NCBI GenBank assembly: GCA_965653075.1
Contig: CBFGYX010000001.1
Span: forward strand, 1-29,082
From: an uncultured bacterium
Lineage (GTDB): Bacteria; Bacteroidota; Rhodothermia; Rhodothermales; CAZKDQ01
Direction of reading: 5' to 3'
Length of the DNA stretch: 29,082 bases
The position numbers and the translations under genes were made by a program. The notes below the pieces were generated by a model. It had not been told where the DNA came from, searched no databases, and saw only the letters and a program-made list of their open reading frames with translations. Below are positions 4,603-29,082 of this stretch, one piece after another (positions within the stretch are counted from its first letter, which is position 1; every line of letters begins with the position of its first letter).

Positions 4603-6087
4603 GTGAGTAAATCGGCTTCACATCATCATCCCGAGGCGACGGCAGACTTCCATGCCGACGCGCCGCTGGTGACGGGCAACCTCTCGTTTAGAGACGTCAC
4701 CGAGATGGTGGCGCTCCATTCGGAGAAGAAGACGCCACCCGCATGGTTCCTCGCGTTCGGCATCTCGAGCTCGCTGGTCATCCTGCTGCTCGTCATGCTG
4801 GCGTACCAGGTGTGGAACGGTGTCGGCGTCTGGGGTAACAACCAGCCGGTGGCCTGGGGATGGCCTATCGTCAACTTCGTGTTCTGGGTGGGCATCGGTC
4901 ACGCCGGCACGCTCATCTCGGCCATCCTTTTCCTGTTCCGTCAGCGGTGGCGTACCTCGATTAACCGTGCCGCCGAGGCGATGACGATTTTCGCCGTCAT
5001 CTGTGCGATGATCTTCCCGCTGTTCCATACCGGCCGTGTGTGGGTGGCCTGGTACTGGATGCTGCCCATCCCAAACCAGATGGATCTGTGGCCGCAGTTT
5101 AAGAGTCCGCTCTTGTGGGACGTCTTCGCTGTGTCGAGCTATTTCGCCGTCTCGGCTATGTTCTGGTACGTCGGCCTTATCCCTGACCTTGCCACGCTGC
5201 GCGACCGTGCGAAGGGCATCTGGCGTCGCCGCGTGCTGGCGTTTTTCTCGATGGGGTGGACGGGGGCCAACAGGCACTGGCGCAACTATGAGAAATCGTA
5301 CCTGCTTCTTGCCGGGCTCGCCACGCCGCTCGTTCTCTCTGTGCACTCGGTGGTCTCGTTTGACTTCGCCATATCAGTAATACCGGGCTGGCACACCACG
5401 ATCTTCCCACCATACTTCGTTGCGGGCGCCATCTTCTCCGGTTTCGCGATGGTCGTCACGCTGATGGTGATTGCCAGACGGGTGTACAACCTCGAGAACC
5501 TGATTACGATCGGCCATCTCGAGAAGATGAACATCGTCATCCTCCTGACGGGTACGATGGTTGGCTTTGCGTACATCACGGAGTTTTTTATCGCCTGGTA
5601 CTCGGGCGTCCAGTATGAGCAGTACGCGTTCATCAACCGTGCAACCGGCCCCTACGCCTGGGCTTACTGGACGATGATGACGTGCAACCTCATCTTCCCG
5701 CAGTTCTTCTGGTTCAAGAAGCTGCGCCGGAGCATTCCGTTCATGTTTGCGATCTCAATTATCGTGAACATCGGCATGTGGTTCGAACGTTTTGTGATCG
5801 TGATTACGTCGCTGCACCGCGACTTCCTGCCCAGCTCGTGGGGTTATTATTCGCCATCGATCGTCGACGCACTGACATTCCTGGGCACGTTCGGTCTCTT
5901 CTTTACACTATTCCTTCTGTTCCTCCGCTTCCTGCCGATGGTCGCGATCTCCGAGGTCAAAGGTGTCATGCCGCAGGCCGACCCGCACTTTTATGACGAC
6001 CACGGAGACGGTGCACCTGCAGGACGCGAGGTTGGATATGCGCGCCCGGATGCAAGTGATGTGGATGCAGCCGATAACGAAAACTGA
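4603..6087 (+). CDS. actC: ACIII subunit ActC (NrfD/PsrC family quinol-binding membrane subunit)
   Basis: [60 protein letters not shown] motifs; polytopic. GTG start at 4603 is a best guess. Confidence 0.93.
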
Positions 6088-21562: not shown

Positions 21563-22234
21563 TCAGCTACGGGCGCCGGCGACTACCAGCACGATCTCAC
21601 CCCGAATCTTCGCTCGGCTCTCGAAATCGGCGGCGATATCAGCCAGTGATCCGCGGACGACCTCCTCAAATTTCTTCGTCAGCTCCCTGCAAACAGCTGC
21701 CTGCCGATCCTCTCCGAATGCTTCATTCAGTTGTCGAAGCGTCTTTAGTATGCGATGCGGTGATTCGTAAAAAACCAGCGTCCGTTCTTCGTTTGCGAGT
21801 GCTGCAATACGCGTGGCGCGTCCTTTCTTGTGGGGAAGAAATCCCTCGAATACGAATCGGTCGTTAGGCAGTCCGCTCAGGACGAGCGCGGGTACAAAGG
21901 CAGTGGCACCGGGCAGCGCCTCTACGGGCACACCTTCTCGTATGCATTCCCTCACCAGATAAAAGCCCGGATCAGAAATTGCCGGCGTGCCGGCATCCGA
22001 GATCAGCGCGATGGTCTCACCGGCCTTCATCCTTCTGATAAGGTCAGGCGTGCGGCCGCGTTCGTTATGGTCGTGATAGCTGAGCGTGGGCTTCGAGATG
22101 TCGAAGTGATTGAGAAGCACCGAAGCCACGCGGGTATCTTCGCAGGCGACGGCGTCGACCTCGTTAAGCACCCGTAAGGCACGTAACGTAATGTCTTCGA
22201 GGTTACCGATCGGCGTCGGTACGAGGTAAAGCAT
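21563..22234 (-). CDS. rsmI: 16S rRNA (cytidine1402-2'-O)-methyltransferase
   Basis: MLYLVPTPIGNLEDITLRALRVL, ACEDTR, ISDAGTPAISDPG, FEGFLP, FYESPHR, CRELTKKFEE. Confidence 0.96.
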   Translation of the reverse strand: MLYLVPTPIGNLEDITLRALRVLNEVDAVACEDTRVASVLLNHFDISKPTLSYHDHNERGRTPDLIRRMKAGETIALISDAGTPAISDPGFYLVRECIREGVPVEALPGATAFVPALVLSGLPNDRFVFEGFLPHKKGRATRIAALANEERTLVFYESPHRILKTLRQLNEAFGEDRQAAVCRELTKKFEEVVRGSLADIAADFESRAKIRGEIVLVVAGARS

Positions 22235-23615
22235 CAACGGGTGTGGGACGTCGTGGTCGGCGAAAGCGGCTCAGAATACTGGGGGTCGTCCGTAAATCCA
22301 ACCACACATAAATCATGGCGAGTATCCCGGCAATGAACAGAATAATGTTACTCGCCCACATCCCCACCCACGGATCGAGGAGCCCGCGATCGGCAAGTTT
22401 CTCACCTTGAACCAGTGAGACCCAGTAGAAGAGGAAGATTACGGTTGCGGCAGCACCGGCCATGCCGAGTCCGCCCCGTCGGATGCTAATGCCGATAGGG
22501 GCACCAATCAGGGCGAAGATGAAACAGGCAACGGCGATCGAGTACTTCTTGTGGATCTCAACCAGGTAGCGGTTCGCACGCTGTTTCTCCCATCCGAGTG
22601 TGCGTCGCGCCTCATCAATCGTATTTCGCCGCTCCCGCGCAAACTGCAACGCGGTGTTGTTGAGGGAAATTCCGTAATCCGGATCCAGAACCGACTCGTC
22701 AGTCGACGCAGAATGAGCCACGCGTGAGTCCGAGTCCACAGTCAGAGGCGGTGCGGCCAGACGTTGAGTTTTGCCGCGGATACTGACTCGGAGCGAGTCA
22801 AGAGCGGCGAGCATGTCAGCCGTGGGCATCGTGCGATCCGATCGCAGGCCCTGGGTTGGGTCGGAGCGTTCGAACTGAAAGTCGTCCAGGTCGATGCGGA
22901 AACGATAGCGATCGAAAGCAAGGCGTTCGTAGCGCTCGGGTTCGCTCCACACGTTCCCATCTTTAACCGTATGCAGCTCACCGTTCCTGAGCTCTAGGTC
23001 GACATAAGGCCCGCCATCGGGTGAGACCACCACGCCCCGTTCGGCTTTGATCACTACCTGCCGACGATTGCGTTGCGTGTAATCATAGATCAGCACGTCA
23101 GACATTTCGTTCGTCTCGCTGTCCACACGCTGCACCAGGATGCTATACCGGTTCAGACCCTGGTAGAATGCGCCGGCTTGAAGATCGAAAGCGGGCTTTT
23201 TCTTGCGGATATCCTGCCAGAGGTTGCGTGCGCGAAAGTTCGCCTCAGGTAGCACGATATGATTGAAGTAAACCATGCTTCCCGCCACAATGCCGGCCAG
23301 GACGAGACTTGGCCATACGATGCGTCCCACGGAGATTCCCGCGCTTTTGATTACAGCGAACGCCTGGTTCTCAGCGAGCCTGCCGTACACCATGAGATTG
23401 GTGATGAGGACGGCCATCGGAACGGCAAGCACAACCATGTACGCCAGGTTGTAGACGATCAGCTCGAGGATGACGCCGATCGGCAACCCTTTACCCGCGA
23501 TATCCGGCAGGTACTTCATCAGGAACTGCATCAGGAGCAGAAACATGATCACGAGCAGCCAGCCGAGGAACGGCCCCGGCATCATGCGCATGATCATGAG
23601 ATGAAGTCTGTTCAT
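22203..23615 (-). CDS. LptF/LptG family LPS export permease
   Basis: Three N-terminal TMs, GRLAENQAFAVIKSAGIS, periplasmic beta-rich domain, EIHKKYSIAVACFIFALIGAPIG, final TMs with WASN. ATG 23615 preferred. Confidence 0.92.
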   Translation of the reverse strand: MNRLHLMIMRMMPGPFLGWLLVIMFLLLMQFLMKYLPDIAGKGLPIGVILELIVYNLAYMVVLAVPMAVLITNLMVYGRLAENQAFAVIKSAGISVGRIVWPSLVLAGIVAGSMVYFNHIVLPEANFRARNLWQDIRKKKPAFDLQAGAFYQGLNRYSILVQRVDSETNEMSDVLIYDYTQRNRRQVVIKAERGVVVSPDGGPYVDLELRNGELHTVKDGNVWSEPERYERLAFDRYRFRIDLDDFQFERSDPTQGLRSDRTMPTADMLAALDSLRVSIRGKTQRLAAPPLTVDSDSRVAHSASTDESVLDPDYGISLNNTALQFARERRNTIDEARRTLGWEKQRANRYLVEIHKKYSIAVACFIFALIGAPIGISIRRGGLGMAGAAATVIFLFYWVSLVQGEKLADRGLLDPWVGMWASNIILFIAGILAMIYVWLDLRTTPSILSRFRRPRRPTPVDALPRTDADR

Positions 23616-23689
23616 CGCCGGGCGAACCGGAGAGGGGGAGGGAGGTACACGCGGATCGTCGTATGAGTGCACCGATCGATCCGCATCAA

Positions 23690-24337
23690 ATGGAAATCAG
23701 GAGCTTCACCTTTAATCCCTTCCAGACCAACTGTTTCATTGCGCACGATCAAGGCGAGGCCGTGATCGTCGACGCAGCGTCGTCCACACCTATCGAACAC
23801 GCCGAGATCGAGCAGTATGTGGAGGAGAACCAGCTGCAGGTAAAGCACCTCCTCCTGACGCACGGGCACATCGACCACATTTTTGGCTGCACCCACTTGT
23901 CTGAGCGTTTCGGGATGCCGTTCAAGTTGCATGCCGAAGACGTGCCGTTACTCGAGCGAGCCGAAGATCAGGCGGCGATGTTTGGCATTCCGCTCGATCG
24001 ACCTAAGGAGGTCGATGGATCGATCGAGGAGGGAGACGAAGTACAATTCGGTGGAGTCACGTGGCGAGTGCTCCACACGCCGGGGCATTCTCCGGGCTCG
24101 ATTGCGTTCTATGATGAGGCAGCGCGCGTGGTACTATCGGGCGATGTACTCTTCGCGGGCTCGATCGGCCGGACAGATTTGTGGAAAGGCTCGTTGCCGA
24201 TCTTGATGGAATCGATCTTTCAGAAACTGCTGCCGCTGGGGGATGATGTACGCGTTTACAGTGGTCACGGGCCGGTGACCACTGTAAAAGAGGAGCGGCG
24301 GCACAACCCGTTTCTCAACGAGGGTATGCCGCTTTGA
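23690..24337 (+). CDS. MBL-fold metallo-hydrolase, glyoxalase II/GloC(YcbL)-like
   Basis: FNPFQTNCFI, THGHIDH, HTPGHSPG, SGDVLF.GSIGRTDL, SGHGP.TT..EERRHNPFL. Confidence 0.92.
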   Translation: MEIRSFTFNPFQTNCFIAHDQGEAVIVDAASSTPIEHAEIEQYVEENQLQVKHLLLTHGHIDHIFGCTHLSERFGMPFKLHAEDVPLLERAEDQAAMFGIPLDRPKEVDGSIEEGDEVQFGGVTWRVLHTPGHSPGSIAFYDEAARVVLSGDVLFAGSIGRTDLWKGSLPILMESIFQKLLPLGDDVRVYSGHGPVTTVKEERRHNPFLNEGMPL

Positions 24338-24658
24338 CTACGACAACACGCGCGCGGCACGGTGTAGCACGACCAGAAGCTTAACACCTTCGCCTTCGAC
24401 GAGGCGCGGTACGGCGCTTTTGATGGCCCAGCCTTCATTCAATAAAGGCAGAACGTCGGGATGCTGTTCGACCGCTTCTCCGCACCTGAAATCCGCGAGT
24501 AGTACGCGGGATGAAGCCGATCCAAAACTATTGAACGTCGTCGGCTGATGTGGTATCTCGGCGCGCGGCGGGATGGGGGCGCGCAGGTAGCCATTCGTTA
24601 CTTGTCCCTTCGGCATCTCAAATTCTCTCCGCCACTTACCTGCCTGCTCGGCAGACAA
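24338..24658 (-). CDS. Hypothetical small protein (start uncertain: TTG 24658, ATG 24616 or ATG 24688)
   Basis: Stop abuts the MBL gene stop; AAAGGAGG precedes in-frame TTG 24658 and GGAGAG precedes ATG 24616; globular-looking C-half LLNEGWAIKSAVPRLVEGEGVKLLVVL. Confidence 0.55.
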   Translation of the reverse strand: MSAEQAGKWRREFEMPKGQVTNGYLRAPIPPRAEIPHQPTTFNSFGSASSRVLLADFRCGEAVEQHPDVLPLLNEGWAIKSAVPRLVEGEGVKLLVVLHRAARVLS

Positions 24659-24802
24659 ATGGCCTCCTTTAACGGGTGGATTACGCATGACCAGTTGCGC
24701 CAGAACTACCCTGTGGTCTGGGTAGATAGTATAGGCGGGATCATCCGGGTTTGTTCTCGCCGTTACGTCCCGGTTACCATCTGGGACGAGTCCGTTGCAG
24801 GC

Positions 24803-25900
24803 TCACAGTCCACCCGGAGCGGCGGTGCCGGTGATGAGGGGCTTGAGGCCGGGCATGGCCGGGCGATTGTGGTTGAGCAGCTCCTGAATAGACTGATAAA
24901 CCAGCTCCCCCATTGTCATACACTGGGCGAACGCGTCGGTCTCGTAATGCTCCTGCAGTTGCTCGCGCAGTCGTCTCACGTGTGAGGTCGAAGAAATAAT
25001 GTCCTCGCGCATGACATTCAGCAGGGCGTTGAACCGACCGGCGGAGACACGCACGCGGTTAGCGATCAATGCCCGCTCTTCCTTTTGATATTGCTGGACG
25101 TTCTCCGGCGCTAGTGTCTCGATGGCCACCTTGATGAACTCCTTGTTCTGCGAGTAGAATTGAGGCAGATACACCTGCTTGCGCCAGTGATGACTTTGCT
25201 GGTCGAAGTCTATCGGCCGCATCCGGAAGTGCCACTTCTCGAAATCGCGTGTGGCATCGATAACGAAGTTGCCGCTGTGCATATCGCCGAGGAGCCGCAC
25301 AAAGCAGCGTTCATTGAATTTGACAAACTCCTTGGCCAGCCTCACCTGGTCGAACCGGTGAGCCGGCATATTCTCGCGGGCGAAGGTTTCGGCAGGGATG
25401 CCGACGATGTGCTCCTCGATGATCGTGTTGTCGTGGATGAGATAGTGGATCCGGTTCGGCGACAGGATGTGCTCGAGCTCGAGGCCGTAGATTCTGTTGG
25501 CATCGACTCGCTTGACATAAAAGTAGTCGAAATTGTCGTTGATGCGATTGACGATGCGCACCCGGAACGGTAGCGTGTTGCCGTACAAGCAGACATCAAC
25601 GCGGTCGACGAACAGATGCTGCGCAATCGATTCGTCGCCATAGGCCTTGAGCAGGGCGTACGTCAGCGTGAGCTGCCGGTGTACCTCTTCCTGCTCTGAT
25701 TGCGGATAAAACACCGTCGACCATAGCGTGTCGCCACCGTGCTCATCGTAGAGCGGAATCGAGTTATTGTGGCGAAGCAAGTCCTCGTACCGAACACCAC
25801 GATCGTGCAACCGACCGTATCGTCCGAGATAGGTCGCGAGGTAATCGCTGATCGGATATACCTCTTTCTTGCGGCTAATCAGATTGCGGCGCGGGACCAT
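24803..25900 (-). CDS. Uncharacterised 365-aa protein with PI3/4-kinase/HipA-like atypical kinase motifs
   Basis: From ATG 25900: GNTLPFRVRI, YFYVK, IEEHI, LLGDMHSGNFVID, RPIDFD in the order expected for this fold. CDS well supported; kinase call is by motif only. Confidence 0.7.
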   Translation of the reverse strand: MVPRRNLISRKKEVYPISDYLATYLGRYGRLHDRGVRYEDLLRHNNSIPLYDEHGGDTLWSTVFYPQSEQEEVHRQLTLTYALLKAYGDESIAQHLFVDRVDVCLYGNTLPFRVRIVNRINDNFDYFYVKRVDANRIYGLELEHILSPNRIHYLIHDNTIIEEHIVGIPAETFARENMPAHRFDQVRLAKEFVKFNERCFVRLLGDMHSGNFVIDATRDFEKWHFRMRPIDFDQQSHHWRKQVYLPQFYSQNKEFIKVAIETLAPENVQQYQKEERALIANRVRVSAGRFNALLNVMREDIISSTSHVRRLREQLQEHYETDAFAQCMTMGELVYQSIQELLNHNRPAMPGLKPLITGTAAPGGL

Positions 25901-25907
25901 TGTACCG

Positions 25908-27056
25908 TCAGACCACGCGAGCCAACATATTCTCGCGTACGCTCTGGTAGTAGTTCTCGTAGTGCGGGATGATTTTGTTGATATCGAACACATCGACAGC
26001 GCGCTTCCGCGCCGCCTTCGCCATCCGGCTCTGCAGGGCATCATCCGTGAGGAGGGTGTATAACCGATCGGTGAAGCCGTCGATATCACCAAGTTCGCAT
26101 AGGTAGCCCGTCTCGCCTTCAACCACCAGTTCGGGCAAGCCGCCGATGTTGCTGGCCACAACCGGCACCTCACACGCCATCGCTTCGAGCGCCGCAAGAC
26201 CGAACGTCTCCGATCCGCTGGGGATCATGAAGGCATCGGCGATGGAAAGTATCTCCTCAACCGGTTCCTGCTTGCCGAGGAAGCGGACATCCTCGGTTAA
26301 CCCGAGCTCGGTCGTCTGACGCTGCACTTGCATCCGGTCGGGGCCGTCGCCTACGAGCAGAAGCTTCAGCTTCAGGCCGCGTTGTTTGAGCCGCGCAAAC
26401 GTCTCGACAACGTCGGCCACGCGCTTTACCGGACGGAAGTTGGAGACATGCACCAATACCTTCTCACCGTCGGGGCTCAAGACCTGCTTGAAATGCTGCT
26501 TATTCAGCCGCCGGAATCGCTTGGTATCAATAAAGTTGGGGATAACCTCGATCTCGTTGTCGATCGAAAAGCGGGATTCCGTTTCGTGGCGCAGGTACTC
26601 CGACACCGCCGTGACACCGTCCGACTCGTTGATGGAGTAGTTGACCACCGGCGCGAATGAGGGGTCCTGTCCGACGATAGTAATGTCGGTCCCATGCAGT
26701 GTCGTGACGATCGGCGTGTGGATGCCCTGCTTCTCCAGGATCTGGCGTGCGAGTACGGCGCTGGTCGCATGCGGTATCGCGTAGTGGACGTGGAGCAGGT
26801 CGAGTTTTTCATACCTCACCACATCGACCATCTTGCTGGTCAGCGCCAGTGCATACGGCGGATATTCGAAAAGCGGATAGGGATTGACGCTTACCTCGTG
26901 GAAGGAAATGTTCTGCCTGATGTGGCCGAGGCGGAAGGGCATCGAGTACGCGATGAAGTGCACCTCGTGACCACGAGCGGCCAGCGCTTTGCCGAGTTCT
27001 GTGGCCACGACGCCGCTACCTCCATAGACGGGGTAACACGTGATCCCGATTTTCAT
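25908..27056 (-). CDS. bshA: N-acetyl-alpha-D-glucosaminyl L-malate synthase (bacillithiol biosynthesis GT4)
   Basis: MKIGITCYPVYGGSGVVATELG, LHVHYAIPHA, TTLHGTDITIVG, HVSNFRPVKR, SETFGLAALEAMAC. Confidence 0.93.
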   Translation of the reverse strand: MKIGITCYPVYGGSGVVATELGKALAARGHEVHFIAYSMPFRLGHIRQNISFHEVSVNPYPLFEYPPYALALTSKMVDVVRYEKLDLLHVHYAIPHATSAVLARQILEKQGIHTPIVTTLHGTDITIVGQDPSFAPVVNYSINESDGVTAVSEYLRHETESRFSIDNEIEVIPNFIDTKRFRRLNKQHFKQVLSPDGEKVLVHVSNFRPVKRVADVVETFARLKQRGLKLKLLLVGDGPDRMQVQRQTTELGLTEDVRFLGKQEPVEEILSIADAFMIPSGSETFGLAALEAMACEVPVVASNIGGLPELVVEGETGYLCELGDIDGFTDRLYTLLTDDALQSRMAKAARKRAVDVFDINKIIPHYENYYQSVRENMLARVV

Positions 27057-27964: not shown

Positions 27965-28465
27965 TTATGCGTCCATGAGCACCCTGGCAGTGACGAGCGT
28001 CTGTCCGAGGTGCCGCTCCGAATGCTCGGCGGCGTGGAAGAGCATTCCCAGGACGGTTGAGGGAAGTTGCTTCCGGCCGACGCCTCGAAAATCCGGGAGT
28101 GTCACCGGATCGATAGAGCGCAGCTCATCGATCGCCTTGTCGATACGGTCTTGTGCCGCACGGATCAGCTCGTCCTTCGACTCGCCGGTCTCCTCAGCCT
28201 CGGAAGAGAGGTAACGCATCTGATCGGATGAAAGCTTTTCGCCGCGCGCGTAGGTGAACAGACGGTCGACAACGCCGGGGATGTGCTTCAGGTGGAAACC
28301 GACCGACGCGACGCCGGCCGGGCGCTCCCATAATTTGTCGTCAGGGAAATCAGCCAGGATGTCGGCGATCTCTTCTTTCACCTGCAGCAATGCATGAGCC
28401 GCAGGTTGCAGCGCAGCCGGTACGCCTTCGACGGGTCCTCGGAGCCAGACTTCGGGCTGTGTCAT
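27965..28465 (-). CDS. DinB/YfiT superfamily protein (possible thiol S-transferase)
   Basis: LWERPAGVASVGFHLKHI and FHAAEHSERHLGQ His pattern; helical ~166 aa. Confidence 0.85.
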   Translation of the reverse strand: MTQPEVWLRGPVEGVPAALQPAAHALLQVKEEIADILADFPDDKLWERPAGVASVGFHLKHIPGVVDRLFTYARGEKLSSDQMRYLSSEAEETGESKDELIRAAQDRIDKAIDELRSIDPVTLPDFRGVGRKQLPSTVLGMLFHAAEHSERHLGQTLVTARVLMDA

Positions 28466-28577
28466 ATCAGAATGCTATCGATTATGGGTAGGGGAGGTGC
28501 TGAAATGAATCGACCGGGAGGAAGTGCCCGGCGTACGACGGCGAGCCCTCGTCGAGGCCTCGCCCGGTTTCTCCCTA

Positions 28578-28724
28578 TGAGTGATGAGCATTGAGCGGTG
28601 GGCGGTGGGCGGTGAGCGTTGGGCACTGAGCACCGAGCGTTGAACATTGCGTACGGCGCGGTGAACAATGGGCGGTGAGTGTTGGGCATTGAGTATTGAA
28701 TATTGGGCATTGAGCATTGAGCGC
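28578..28724 (+). repeat. Degenerate heptamer tandem array, 21 units, consensus TGAGC(A/G)N / TGGGCNN
   Basis: Read in 7-nt register: tgagtga tgagcat tgagcgg tgggcgg tgggcgg tgagcgt tgggcac tgagcac cgagcgt tgaacat ... tgggcat tgagcat tgagcgc. Confidence 0.9.
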
Positions 28725-28732
28725 TGCGAACT

Positions 28733-29082
28733 CGCTCACCGCTCATCGCTCATCGCTTCCGTCTCACCGCTCATCGCTCACCGCTCATCGCTCATCGCTT
28801 CCGTCTCACCGCTCATCGCTCACCGCTCATCGCTCACCGCTCATCGCTCATCGCTAATAGCTCATCGCTCACCGCTTCCGTCTCACCGCTCATCGCTTCC
28901 GTCTCACCGCTCATCGCTTCCCGTCTCACCGCTCATCGCTTTCGCCTCACCGCTCATCGCTTCCGGCTCATCGCTCATCGCTCATCGCTCACCGCTCATC
29001 GCTCACCGCTCATCGCTCACCGCTCATCGCTCACCGCTCACCGCTCATCGCTCACCGCTCATCGCTCACCGCTCATCGCTCA
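28733..29082 (+). repeat. Homogeneous heptamer tandem array, ~50 units, CGCTCA(T/C) with CGCTTCC-GTCTCAC variants; runs to window end
   Basis: Direct reading; 7-nt register is broken only by a single extra C near 28922. Confidence 0.97.

Follow-up and report, generated by a model that had tools for sequence, protein, structure and literature searches.

A kinase-like protein next to bshA in a Rhodothermales genome: a new member of an orphan family of probable phosphotransferases

What does the gene that directly follows bshA encode in an uncultured bacterium of the Rhodothermales, and does this position say anything about its function? The gene lies in a stretch of 29,082 nucleotides (contig CBFGYX010000001.1 of assembly GCA_965653075.1), hereafter the window, and its product is here called P0001. 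A preliminary description had proposed an active kinase of the PI3K/HipA type, transcribed together with bshA and acting either on a small molecule or as a protein kinase linked to thiol and redox metabolism. Our analysis makes us lean towards a soluble, stand-alone, ATP-dependent phosphotransferase of the protein-kinase-like superfamily, belonging to an orphan family whose architecture comes closest to PI3K and PI4K and whose acceptor is most likely not a protein.

The beginning of the gene is hidden in the program-made list of open reading frames (ORFs), where the kinase frame runs up to a TTG at 26197, counts 464 residues and thereby reaches into the 3' end of bshA, as had been remarked before. 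The N-termini of homologues (MASRKNLISKKK and similar) start where the ATG at 25900 stands, which thus marks the real start of the kinase. On the minus strand this ATG (25900-25898) follows the TGA of bshA (25910-25908) after seven nucleotides, just as described, and the upstream gene had been named correctly as well: translated from the ATG at 27056, its product matches the TIGR03999 equivalog with 561.7 bits (cutoff 273.7) over model positions 1-373 of 375. Because the gap is this short and no terminator-like site lies between the two genes, nor a promoter-like one, co-transcription in this genome is plausible from the sequence. We regard bshA as a neighbour that probably shares a transcript with the kinase gene, without a functional partnership being implied.

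The five motifs on which the kinase proposal was built all occur in the order given, the left edge of LLGDMHSGNFVID alone being slightly misplaced (25256, not ~25265). They are not chance resemblances, because their key residues are invariant among the 22 sequences of alignment A1, whose identity to P0001 goes down to 28%, and are kept in 208-211 of the 211 full-length sequences of a larger alignment (137 database proteins, 73 ORFs from the surveyed loci and the window); this range covers each A1-invariant motif residue that was scored there, F232 among them. Invariant in A1 are N108, P111, K130, D133, G139, T159, E162, G167, L203, L204, G205, D206, M207, N211, D231, F232, D233, Q235, Y244 and N252, and R136 is kept in at least 90% of its sequences. 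The larger alignment retains N108 in 210 and P111 in all 211 sequences, K130 in 210, R136, E141 and E143 of the alphaC-like helix in 209, 207 and 206, D206, M207 and N211 of the catalytic loop in 210, 209 and 209, and D231, D233, Q234 and Q235 of the DFD region in 210, 210, 209 and 208. The four residues central to the earlier proposal, K130, D206, N211 and D231, thus each stand in 209-210 sequences. Position 208 is His in 171 and Arg in 39, and two cysteines, C104 (208/211) and C199 (193/211), are kept. Across the 211 sequences, the segment behind the DFD motif hardly varies and is polar (Q234, Q235, Y244, P246, N252), and the N-terminal module and the C-terminal helix bundle are conserved to the same degree as the core.

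In which fold do these motifs stand? An AlphaFold2 model of the full-length protein, computed from A1, has a mean predicted local distance difference test score (pLDDT) of 89.3, falling below 50 only at residues 1-9, and a predicted TM-score (pTM) of 0.86. In its N-lobe, strand 96-104 leads over the GNTLP loop to strands 112-118 and 124-131, the latter ending near K130; helix 134-146, two strands, the hinge HIVGIP and a long helix (182-202) follow, and the C-lobe holds the catalytic loop GDMHSGN, a long hairpin (212-229), the DFD motif and helices up to residue 344. Against the PDB, Foldseek returned 366 matches to this model at E<=0.001, and every one of the 48 listed is a kinase or pseudokinase domain. 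Forty-six of them are PI3K-family catalytic subunits (p110 alpha, gamma and delta, Vps34; E 1e-5 to 8e-5, probability 1.00, TMq 0.33-0.41, about 280-360 aligned columns); the other two are LegK4 (rank 20) and the JAK2 pseudokinase domain (rank 45). Among language-model neighbours, the unnamed clusters of the family itself come first, followed by HipA_2, HipA_C and PI3_PI4_kinase at 0.89-0.90, with 125-135 of 256 features shared. The residue set of Pfam clan CL0016 (the beta3 Lys, an Asp with an Asn five residues later, and a DFG-type Asp) is present and conserved, and the assignment of P0001 to the protein-kinase-like superfamily, with its bilobal fold as predicted, is robust. The kinase fold of the preliminary description is thereby supported, and the full-length model and the language-model neighbours lean towards its PI3K/HipA-like kinship.

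How widespread is such a protein? A homologue search from P0001 yielded at least 8000 protein clusters, with E<=0.001 for each of the 8000 candidates scored; the best 120 of these carry no precomputed Pfam domain, and the source names among the matches listed are all 'hypothetical protein'. At the level of 50%-identity cluster representatives there are 587 matches, 79 of them at E<=1e-30, and in species-representative genomes at least 595 loci were confirmed (595 of 600 pattern hits). Our locus survey comprises the best 80 of these at least 595 loci, mostly from Rhodothermales (L001-L008) and Bacteroidota, the latter represented by Cytophagales families, Saprospiraceae/Lewinellaceae, Chitinophagales, Flavobacteriales and Sphingobacteriales; two are from Nannocystaceae metagenome-assembled genomes. 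In a maximum-likelihood tree of 81 kinase sequences (quick search, SH-aLRT support), a Rhodothermales clade of nine rows (support 100) stands apart from the remaining 72 (support 100), families group by taxon, and identity between the phyla is about 50% over the full length. The family is common in Bacteroidota and Rhodothermota and housekeeping-like, its tree tracking taxonomy. Very probably it is the family flagged recently, by computation, as SEAE1 (bioRxiv 10.64898/2026.09.18.752743, 2026-09-24), since K130, R136, D206, N211, D231 and D233 of P0001 correspond, at a constant offset of 10, to the six catalytic residues given in the available part of that preprint (K140, R146, D216, N221, D241, D243).

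Some members deserve a separate remark. The kinase copies of L027 and L028, whose contigs were assigned by binning to Limnohabitans (Pseudomonadota) and Planctomycetota, branch from within the Algoriphagus clade (branch lengths 0.04-0.07), and their gene order is that of Algoriphagus too; mis-binning of the contigs is a more probable cause than gene transfer. Among the A1 members, the representative P0126 (491 residues) is extended at its N-terminus by about 150 residues that include a match to the TFIIB-type zinc ribbon PF13453 (E 1.5e-10), the only domain fusion observed in the family; long fusion proteins of 861-2455 residues were not found in it. The most divergent member, P0187, used as query, retrieved itself and one relative and no named match.

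Since the canonical phosphotransfer residues are complete, ordered and near-invariant, P0001 is likely an active, ATP- and Mg-dependent phosphotransferase, in agreement with what had been proposed. Judging from residue equivalence, K130, together with R136 on the alphaC-like helix, would hold the ATP phosphates, N211 and D231 would bind Mg2+, D206 could act as base towards the acceptor hydroxyl, and the acceptor pocket may be formed by D233, Q234 and Q235 together with the conserved stretch that reaches N252. The invariance and polarity of the segment behind the DFD motif, the conservation of about 50% between phyla and the lack of an antitoxin-like or regulatory partner among the neighbours scanned argue against a toxin or a typical signalling kinase and for a conserved acceptor, which we are somewhat inclined to regard as something other than a protein. 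As the full-length model resembles PI3K, a membrane-lipid head group is the leading candidate, if a tentative one; the two unrelated glycosyltransferases found upstream in different lineages and the lack of a recognised membrane-binding element bring a soluble, glycoside-like metabolite into play; a soluble polar compound such as a glycoside or a sugar acid is the next, slightly less probable candidate. The most specific version of the lipid proposal would be a PI3K/PI4K-like lipid kinase with a housekeeping role, native to the free-living members of Bacteroidota and Rhodothermota, that phosphorylates a membrane-lipid head group and was perhaps drawn into a transcription unit with bshA in a Rhodothermales subclade; we consider it rather improbable.

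Several observations weigh against a PI3K-like phosphotransferase. Pfam recognises no kinase model in P0001 at E<=10 (best SLATT_6, E 0.18), and at E<=1 yields for the 22 members of A1 scattered chance matches and the zinc ribbon of P0126, but again no kinase; against PDB sequences, neither phmmer with P0001 nor the 22-sequence family profile found a match. The TM-scores to the PI3K structures are low (0.33-0.41), with root-mean-square deviations of 8-11 A. Close relatives predominate in the larger alignment (median identity to P0001 66%, minimum 30%), and the equation with SEAE1 was read from residue spacing, not from a direct alignment. No conserved lipid-metabolism or other partner appeared in the loci surveyed and no membrane-binding element was identified in P0001; moreover, the accessible text of PMC9246714 describes inositol-lipid production as relatively rare in bacteria, which weakens phosphatidylinositol as the default substrate. 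Finally, a model of the core alone (residues 92-262, from a 57-sequence alignment, pLDDT 85.2) gave 127 Foldseek matches at E<=0.001, the best of which are the eukaryotic-type protein kinases (ePKs) CDPK1, CLK1, CDK1, Wee1, CK1 and TTK (TMq 0.45-0.56, E from 6e-5), so that the isolated core fits ordinary protein kinases at least as well as PI3K. As the core prefers ePKs and the full length PI3K, the PI3K-like label rests on the whole architecture with its flanking modules and on the language-model leads.

Could P0001 then be a protein Ser/Thr kinase, either a regulatory, ePK-like enzyme or a growth-arresting toxin of the HipA kind? The resemblance of its core to CDPK1, CLK1, CDK1, CK1 and Wee1, the HipA families as nearest named language-model clusters, and LegK4 and the JAK2 domain among the full-length matches all speak for this. 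What makes it a minority prospect in our estimate is the company and the history of the gene. The immediate neighbours in 73 loci number 143 (112 scanned directly, 31 through a cluster representative), and none of them is a HipB-like or other antitoxin-type partner; the only DNA-binding products are LytTR regulators (L055, L058, L060) and one sigma-70 factor (L067). PADLOC gave nothing of note for P0001 (best HamA, E 0.016), the HipA_C, HipA_2 and Pkinase hidden Markov models (HMMs) match neither P0001 nor the 22 members, and a tree that tracks taxonomy, with about 50% identity between phyla, is unlike that of mobile toxin genes. A HipA-type toxin-antitoxin reading was rejected for the missing HipB-like partner among the scanned neighbours and for this tree. 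Apart from phosphotransfer, the fold might serve another chemistry or be a non-catalytic scaffold. Atypical kinase-fold proteins such as SelO and SidJ perform AMPylation or glutamylation. That protein-kinase-like folds support other activities is stated in the available part of PMC10870513, and the AlphaFold 3 model of SEAE1 is described, in the accessible part of its preprint, as lacking the canonical Lys-Glu ion pair (bioRxiv 10.64898/2026.09.18.752743). In our family, however, the phosphotransfer residues are near-invariant and follow one another in the canonical way, D-x4-N and then DFD at the usual spacing, and E141 (207/211) and E143 (206/211) are conserved on the alphaC-like helix; a scaffold would not keep these residues, and we think either alternative very unlikely.

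This leaves the question raised by the locus itself, whether the kinase acts in bacillithiol or thiol-redox metabolism, for instance by phosphorylating an intermediate such as GlcNAc-malate or by regulating BshA or thiol enzymes, and shares an operon for that reason. Several features of the locus are suggestive. The gaps between bshA and the kinase are short (7 nt in the window, 63 nt in L003, 53 nt in L004, 0 nt in L006; in L005, the first aligned kinase residue comes 7 nt after the bshA stop, and the sole in-frame ATG/GTG/TTG start overlaps bshA by 77 nt), and C104 and C199 are conserved. In bacillithiol-using bacteria, the metallo-beta-lactamase (MBL) and DinB-type families include thiol-dependent glyoxalase II and S-transferases; a gene of each family lies near the kinase and gives the window locus a thiol flavour, and in L003, L004 and L007 the kinase again faces a convergent MBL gene. 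Bacteroidetes, moreover, are predicted bacillithiol makers according to the available part of PMC6282198. Against this stands the distribution of the arrangement. By tblastn over the flanks of all 80 loci (at most 6 kb, shorter at contig ends), bshA was located directly upstream in four, L003, L004, L005 and L006, that is, in four of the eight Rhodothermales loci and none of the 72 others. The five bshA-linked rows, the window included, belong to one Rhodothermales subclade of seven, together with L001 and L007, which lack bshA, and the label requires three changes on the tree, or at least two if only well-supported branches count. The DinB gene is not conserved at its position in related loci, and no kinase was found in the bacillithiol literature consulted, the word occurring 0 times in the accessible text of PMC6282198. 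Being confined to a few Rhodothermales, with at least two or three gains or losses, the adjacency is peculiar to one lineage and does not speak for a common pathway; by its own refutation criterion the pathway link of the preliminary description is not supported, and we hold a bacillithiol function to be highly improbable.

If not bshA, does any other gene accompany the phosphotransferase? We clustered all ORFs of the 80 loci and the window, leaving out L002, L005, L031, L036, L039, L048 and L079, in which the kinase ORF was uncalled. None of the clustered loci revealed a partner conserved beyond the family level; there is lineage-limited synteny and otherwise a miscellany. In ten loci of Cyclobacteriaceae type the kinase is preceded by a DUF3817 gene and, at a greater distance, by genes for a thioesterase and a PCMT methyltransferase. 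In nine loci (L012, L013, L014, L016, L017, L018, L032, L041, L046; ~4900-5990 in each), a GT-B glycosyltransferase of the MJ1255/VC2487 family (PF13528; TIGR00661 at 111 bits, below cutoff) precedes the kinase by one or two genes on the same strand. With BshA in Rhodothermales, two unrelated glycosyltransferases thus adjoin this kinase family in separate lineages, a recurrence that may be chance. LytTR response regulators occur one or two genes upstream in four loci, adjacent and co-oriented in L055, L058 and L060 (Pontibacter) and inverted in L062. The remaining neighbours are transporters, peptidases, DnaJ, FtsW and similar proteins, and since a convergent gene often lies downstream, the kinase gene commonly ends its unit. 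The features of the window are collected in Table 1.

Table 1. Features of the window, with the motifs of P0001 and the genes around it
Feature	Position	Strand	Remarks
Orphan kinase gene (P0001), 365 aa + stop	24803..25900	minus	ORF and translation
Domains of P0001			N-terminal alpha/beta module, residues ~10-95; kinase core, ~96-262; C-terminal five-helix bundle, ~265-344; non-conserved tail
GNTLPFRVRI, residues 107-116	25553..25582	minus	loop between first two N-lobe strands, nucleotide-binding-loop position; N108, P111
YFYVK, residues 126-130	25511..25525	minus	strand with K130, equivalent of the ATP-binding beta3 lysine
RIYGLELEH	25469..25495	minus	alphaC-equivalent helix with R136, E141, E143
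IEEHI, residues 161-165	25406..25420	minus	
LLGDMHSGNFVID, residues 203-215	25256..25294	minus	catalytic-loop region
LLGDMHSGN	25268..25294	minus	catalytic loop; D206 proposed base, N211 proposed Mg ligand, D-x4-N spacing
RPIDFD, residues 228-233	25202..25219	minus	
IDFDQQ	25196..25213	minus	DFG-motif equivalent; D231 (proposed Mg ligand), D233, Q234, Q235
Spacer from bshA stop to kinase ATG, 7 nt (cggtaca)	25901..25907	minus	direct sequence reading
bshA (N-acetyl-alpha-D-glucosaminyl L-malate synthase), 382 aa	25908..27056	minus	TIGR03999 and GT4 Pfam domains
116-aa ORF	24338..24688	minus	no Pfam/NCBIfam match, no relative in the 80 loci
Glyoxalase-II-like MBL-fold hydrolase	23663..24337	plus	TIGR03413 at 96.5 bits, below cutoff 200.8; convergent to kinase
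LptF/LptG permease	22203..23672	minus	
TMEM260-like protein O-mannosyltransferase homologue, 989 aa	18581..21550	minus	with tetratricopeptide repeat match
DinB_2 family protein	27965..28465	minus	family match

Downstream of the kinase, 465 nt (24338-24802) separate its stop from the MBL gene in the window, against 67 nt in L003 and 25 nt in L004; as the gap is longer than in these relatives, 24338-24802 may be an insertion or non-coding DNA. In L003 and L004 the LptF/LptG gene likewise comes after the MBL gene. At the other end of the window, 28732-29082 form a tandem array that runs off the window end, with a period of 14 or 21 and a TCGCTCA-like unit of 7 nt (about 25 copies of the 14-nt period, 80-83% match), and the ORFs over it read as repetitive peptides: one on the plus strand (28668-29081) stays open at the window end, and two are on the minus strand (28462-28746, 28475-28717). 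Neither an Rfam scan nor a tRNA scan gave a match in the window.

What follows if the gene is indeed the phosphotransferase that we favour? The family is large and strongly conserved, has an intact active site and is without a Pfam or NCBIfam model, the best NCBIfam match of P0001 being an unusable one to MerG (E 0.17); the identity of its substrate would give a function to thousands of genes in the environmentally dominant Bacteroidota and Rhodothermota. Should the substrate be a lipid, the family would bear on the origin of phosphoinositide-type kinases, as a prokaryotic relative of the eukaryotic ones, and would be involved in phosphorylated-lipid homeostasis or signalling in these bacteria, and the unit with bshA could couple the state of envelope and lipids to thiol metabolism in the Rhodothermales subclade. 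For annotation, the true start hidden by the ORF call is now corrected, and local gene order proves poor ground for a bacillithiol role.

How does P0001 compare with kinases already known? Choline- and aminoglycoside-type kinases resemble P0001 in a catalytic loop of the H-G-D-x-H-x-x-N type and a second acidic residue two positions after the metal Asp (IDFE/IDFD). They are absent from the top 50 Foldseek matches of both the full-length and the core model, and no HMM match points to them. With HipA and HipA_2 (PF07804, PF20613), P0001 shares the kinase-like clan and the closest named language-model clusters (0.89-0.90); it differs from them by the lack of an HMM match and of a HipB partner, by a tree that follows taxonomy and by a much higher conservation.

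The likeness to PI3K and PI4K (PF00454) is greater in architecture, as these provide the best full-length structural matches and helical elements flank the core in P0001. PI3K and PI4K carry the motifs LGDRHxxN/DRHxxN and IDFG/DFG, with about 13 residues between the Asn and the DFG-type Asp. The G-D-x-H-x-x-N and IDF(D) of P0001 resemble these, but the Arg of DRH is a near-invariant Met in its family, the His is replaced by Arg in 39 of 211 sequences, the Gly of DFG is a near-invariant Asp, and 20 residues lie between the Asn and the DFG-type Asp. With 365 residues, P0001 also lacks C2, helical and Ras-binding domains, and the PF00454 HMM matches neither P0001 (E<=10) nor the 22 members (E<=1).

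The closest counterpart is SEAE1, described in the available part of its preprint as a 'novel' kinase-like family and a putative PI3K-like lipid kinase, with WP_147203046.1 of Segetibacter aerophilus (Chitinophagaceae) as representative, 7,867 homologues, mostly in Bacteroidota, a weak HHpred likeness to PF00454 (E=250) and lipid kinases as nearest structures; its R146 is reported to contact the ATP beta-phosphate and D243 (bioRxiv 10.64898/2026.09.18.752743). The name occurs in no other paper of the literature searched. Going by that part of the preprint, the two agree in their mainly bacteroidotal distribution, in size (about 7.9 thousand homologues there, at least 8000 here), in PI3K as nearest structures (for P0001, with the full-length model) without a usable PF00454 match, in a predicted cytoplasmic location and in a variable neighbourhood with lineage-specific modules only. 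They differ in these modules, a PAP2 phosphatase, SmpB and AccD next to SEAE1, intact in 4 of 20 Segetibacter genomes only, as against bshA in 4 of 80 loci for the family of P0001, and in origin, the representative coming from the Chitinophagaceae and P0001 from a Rhodothermales genome. Hence the preliminary notion that such a kinase had not been described stands in one part: in the accessible literature on bacillithiol and on PI3K-like kinases in Bacteroidetes we found no description of a kinase gene adjoining bshA, whereas the family itself has very probably been described as SEAE1. The gene behind bshA thus adds a new member, with a new gene neighbourhood, to an orphan kinase family that was flagged recently.

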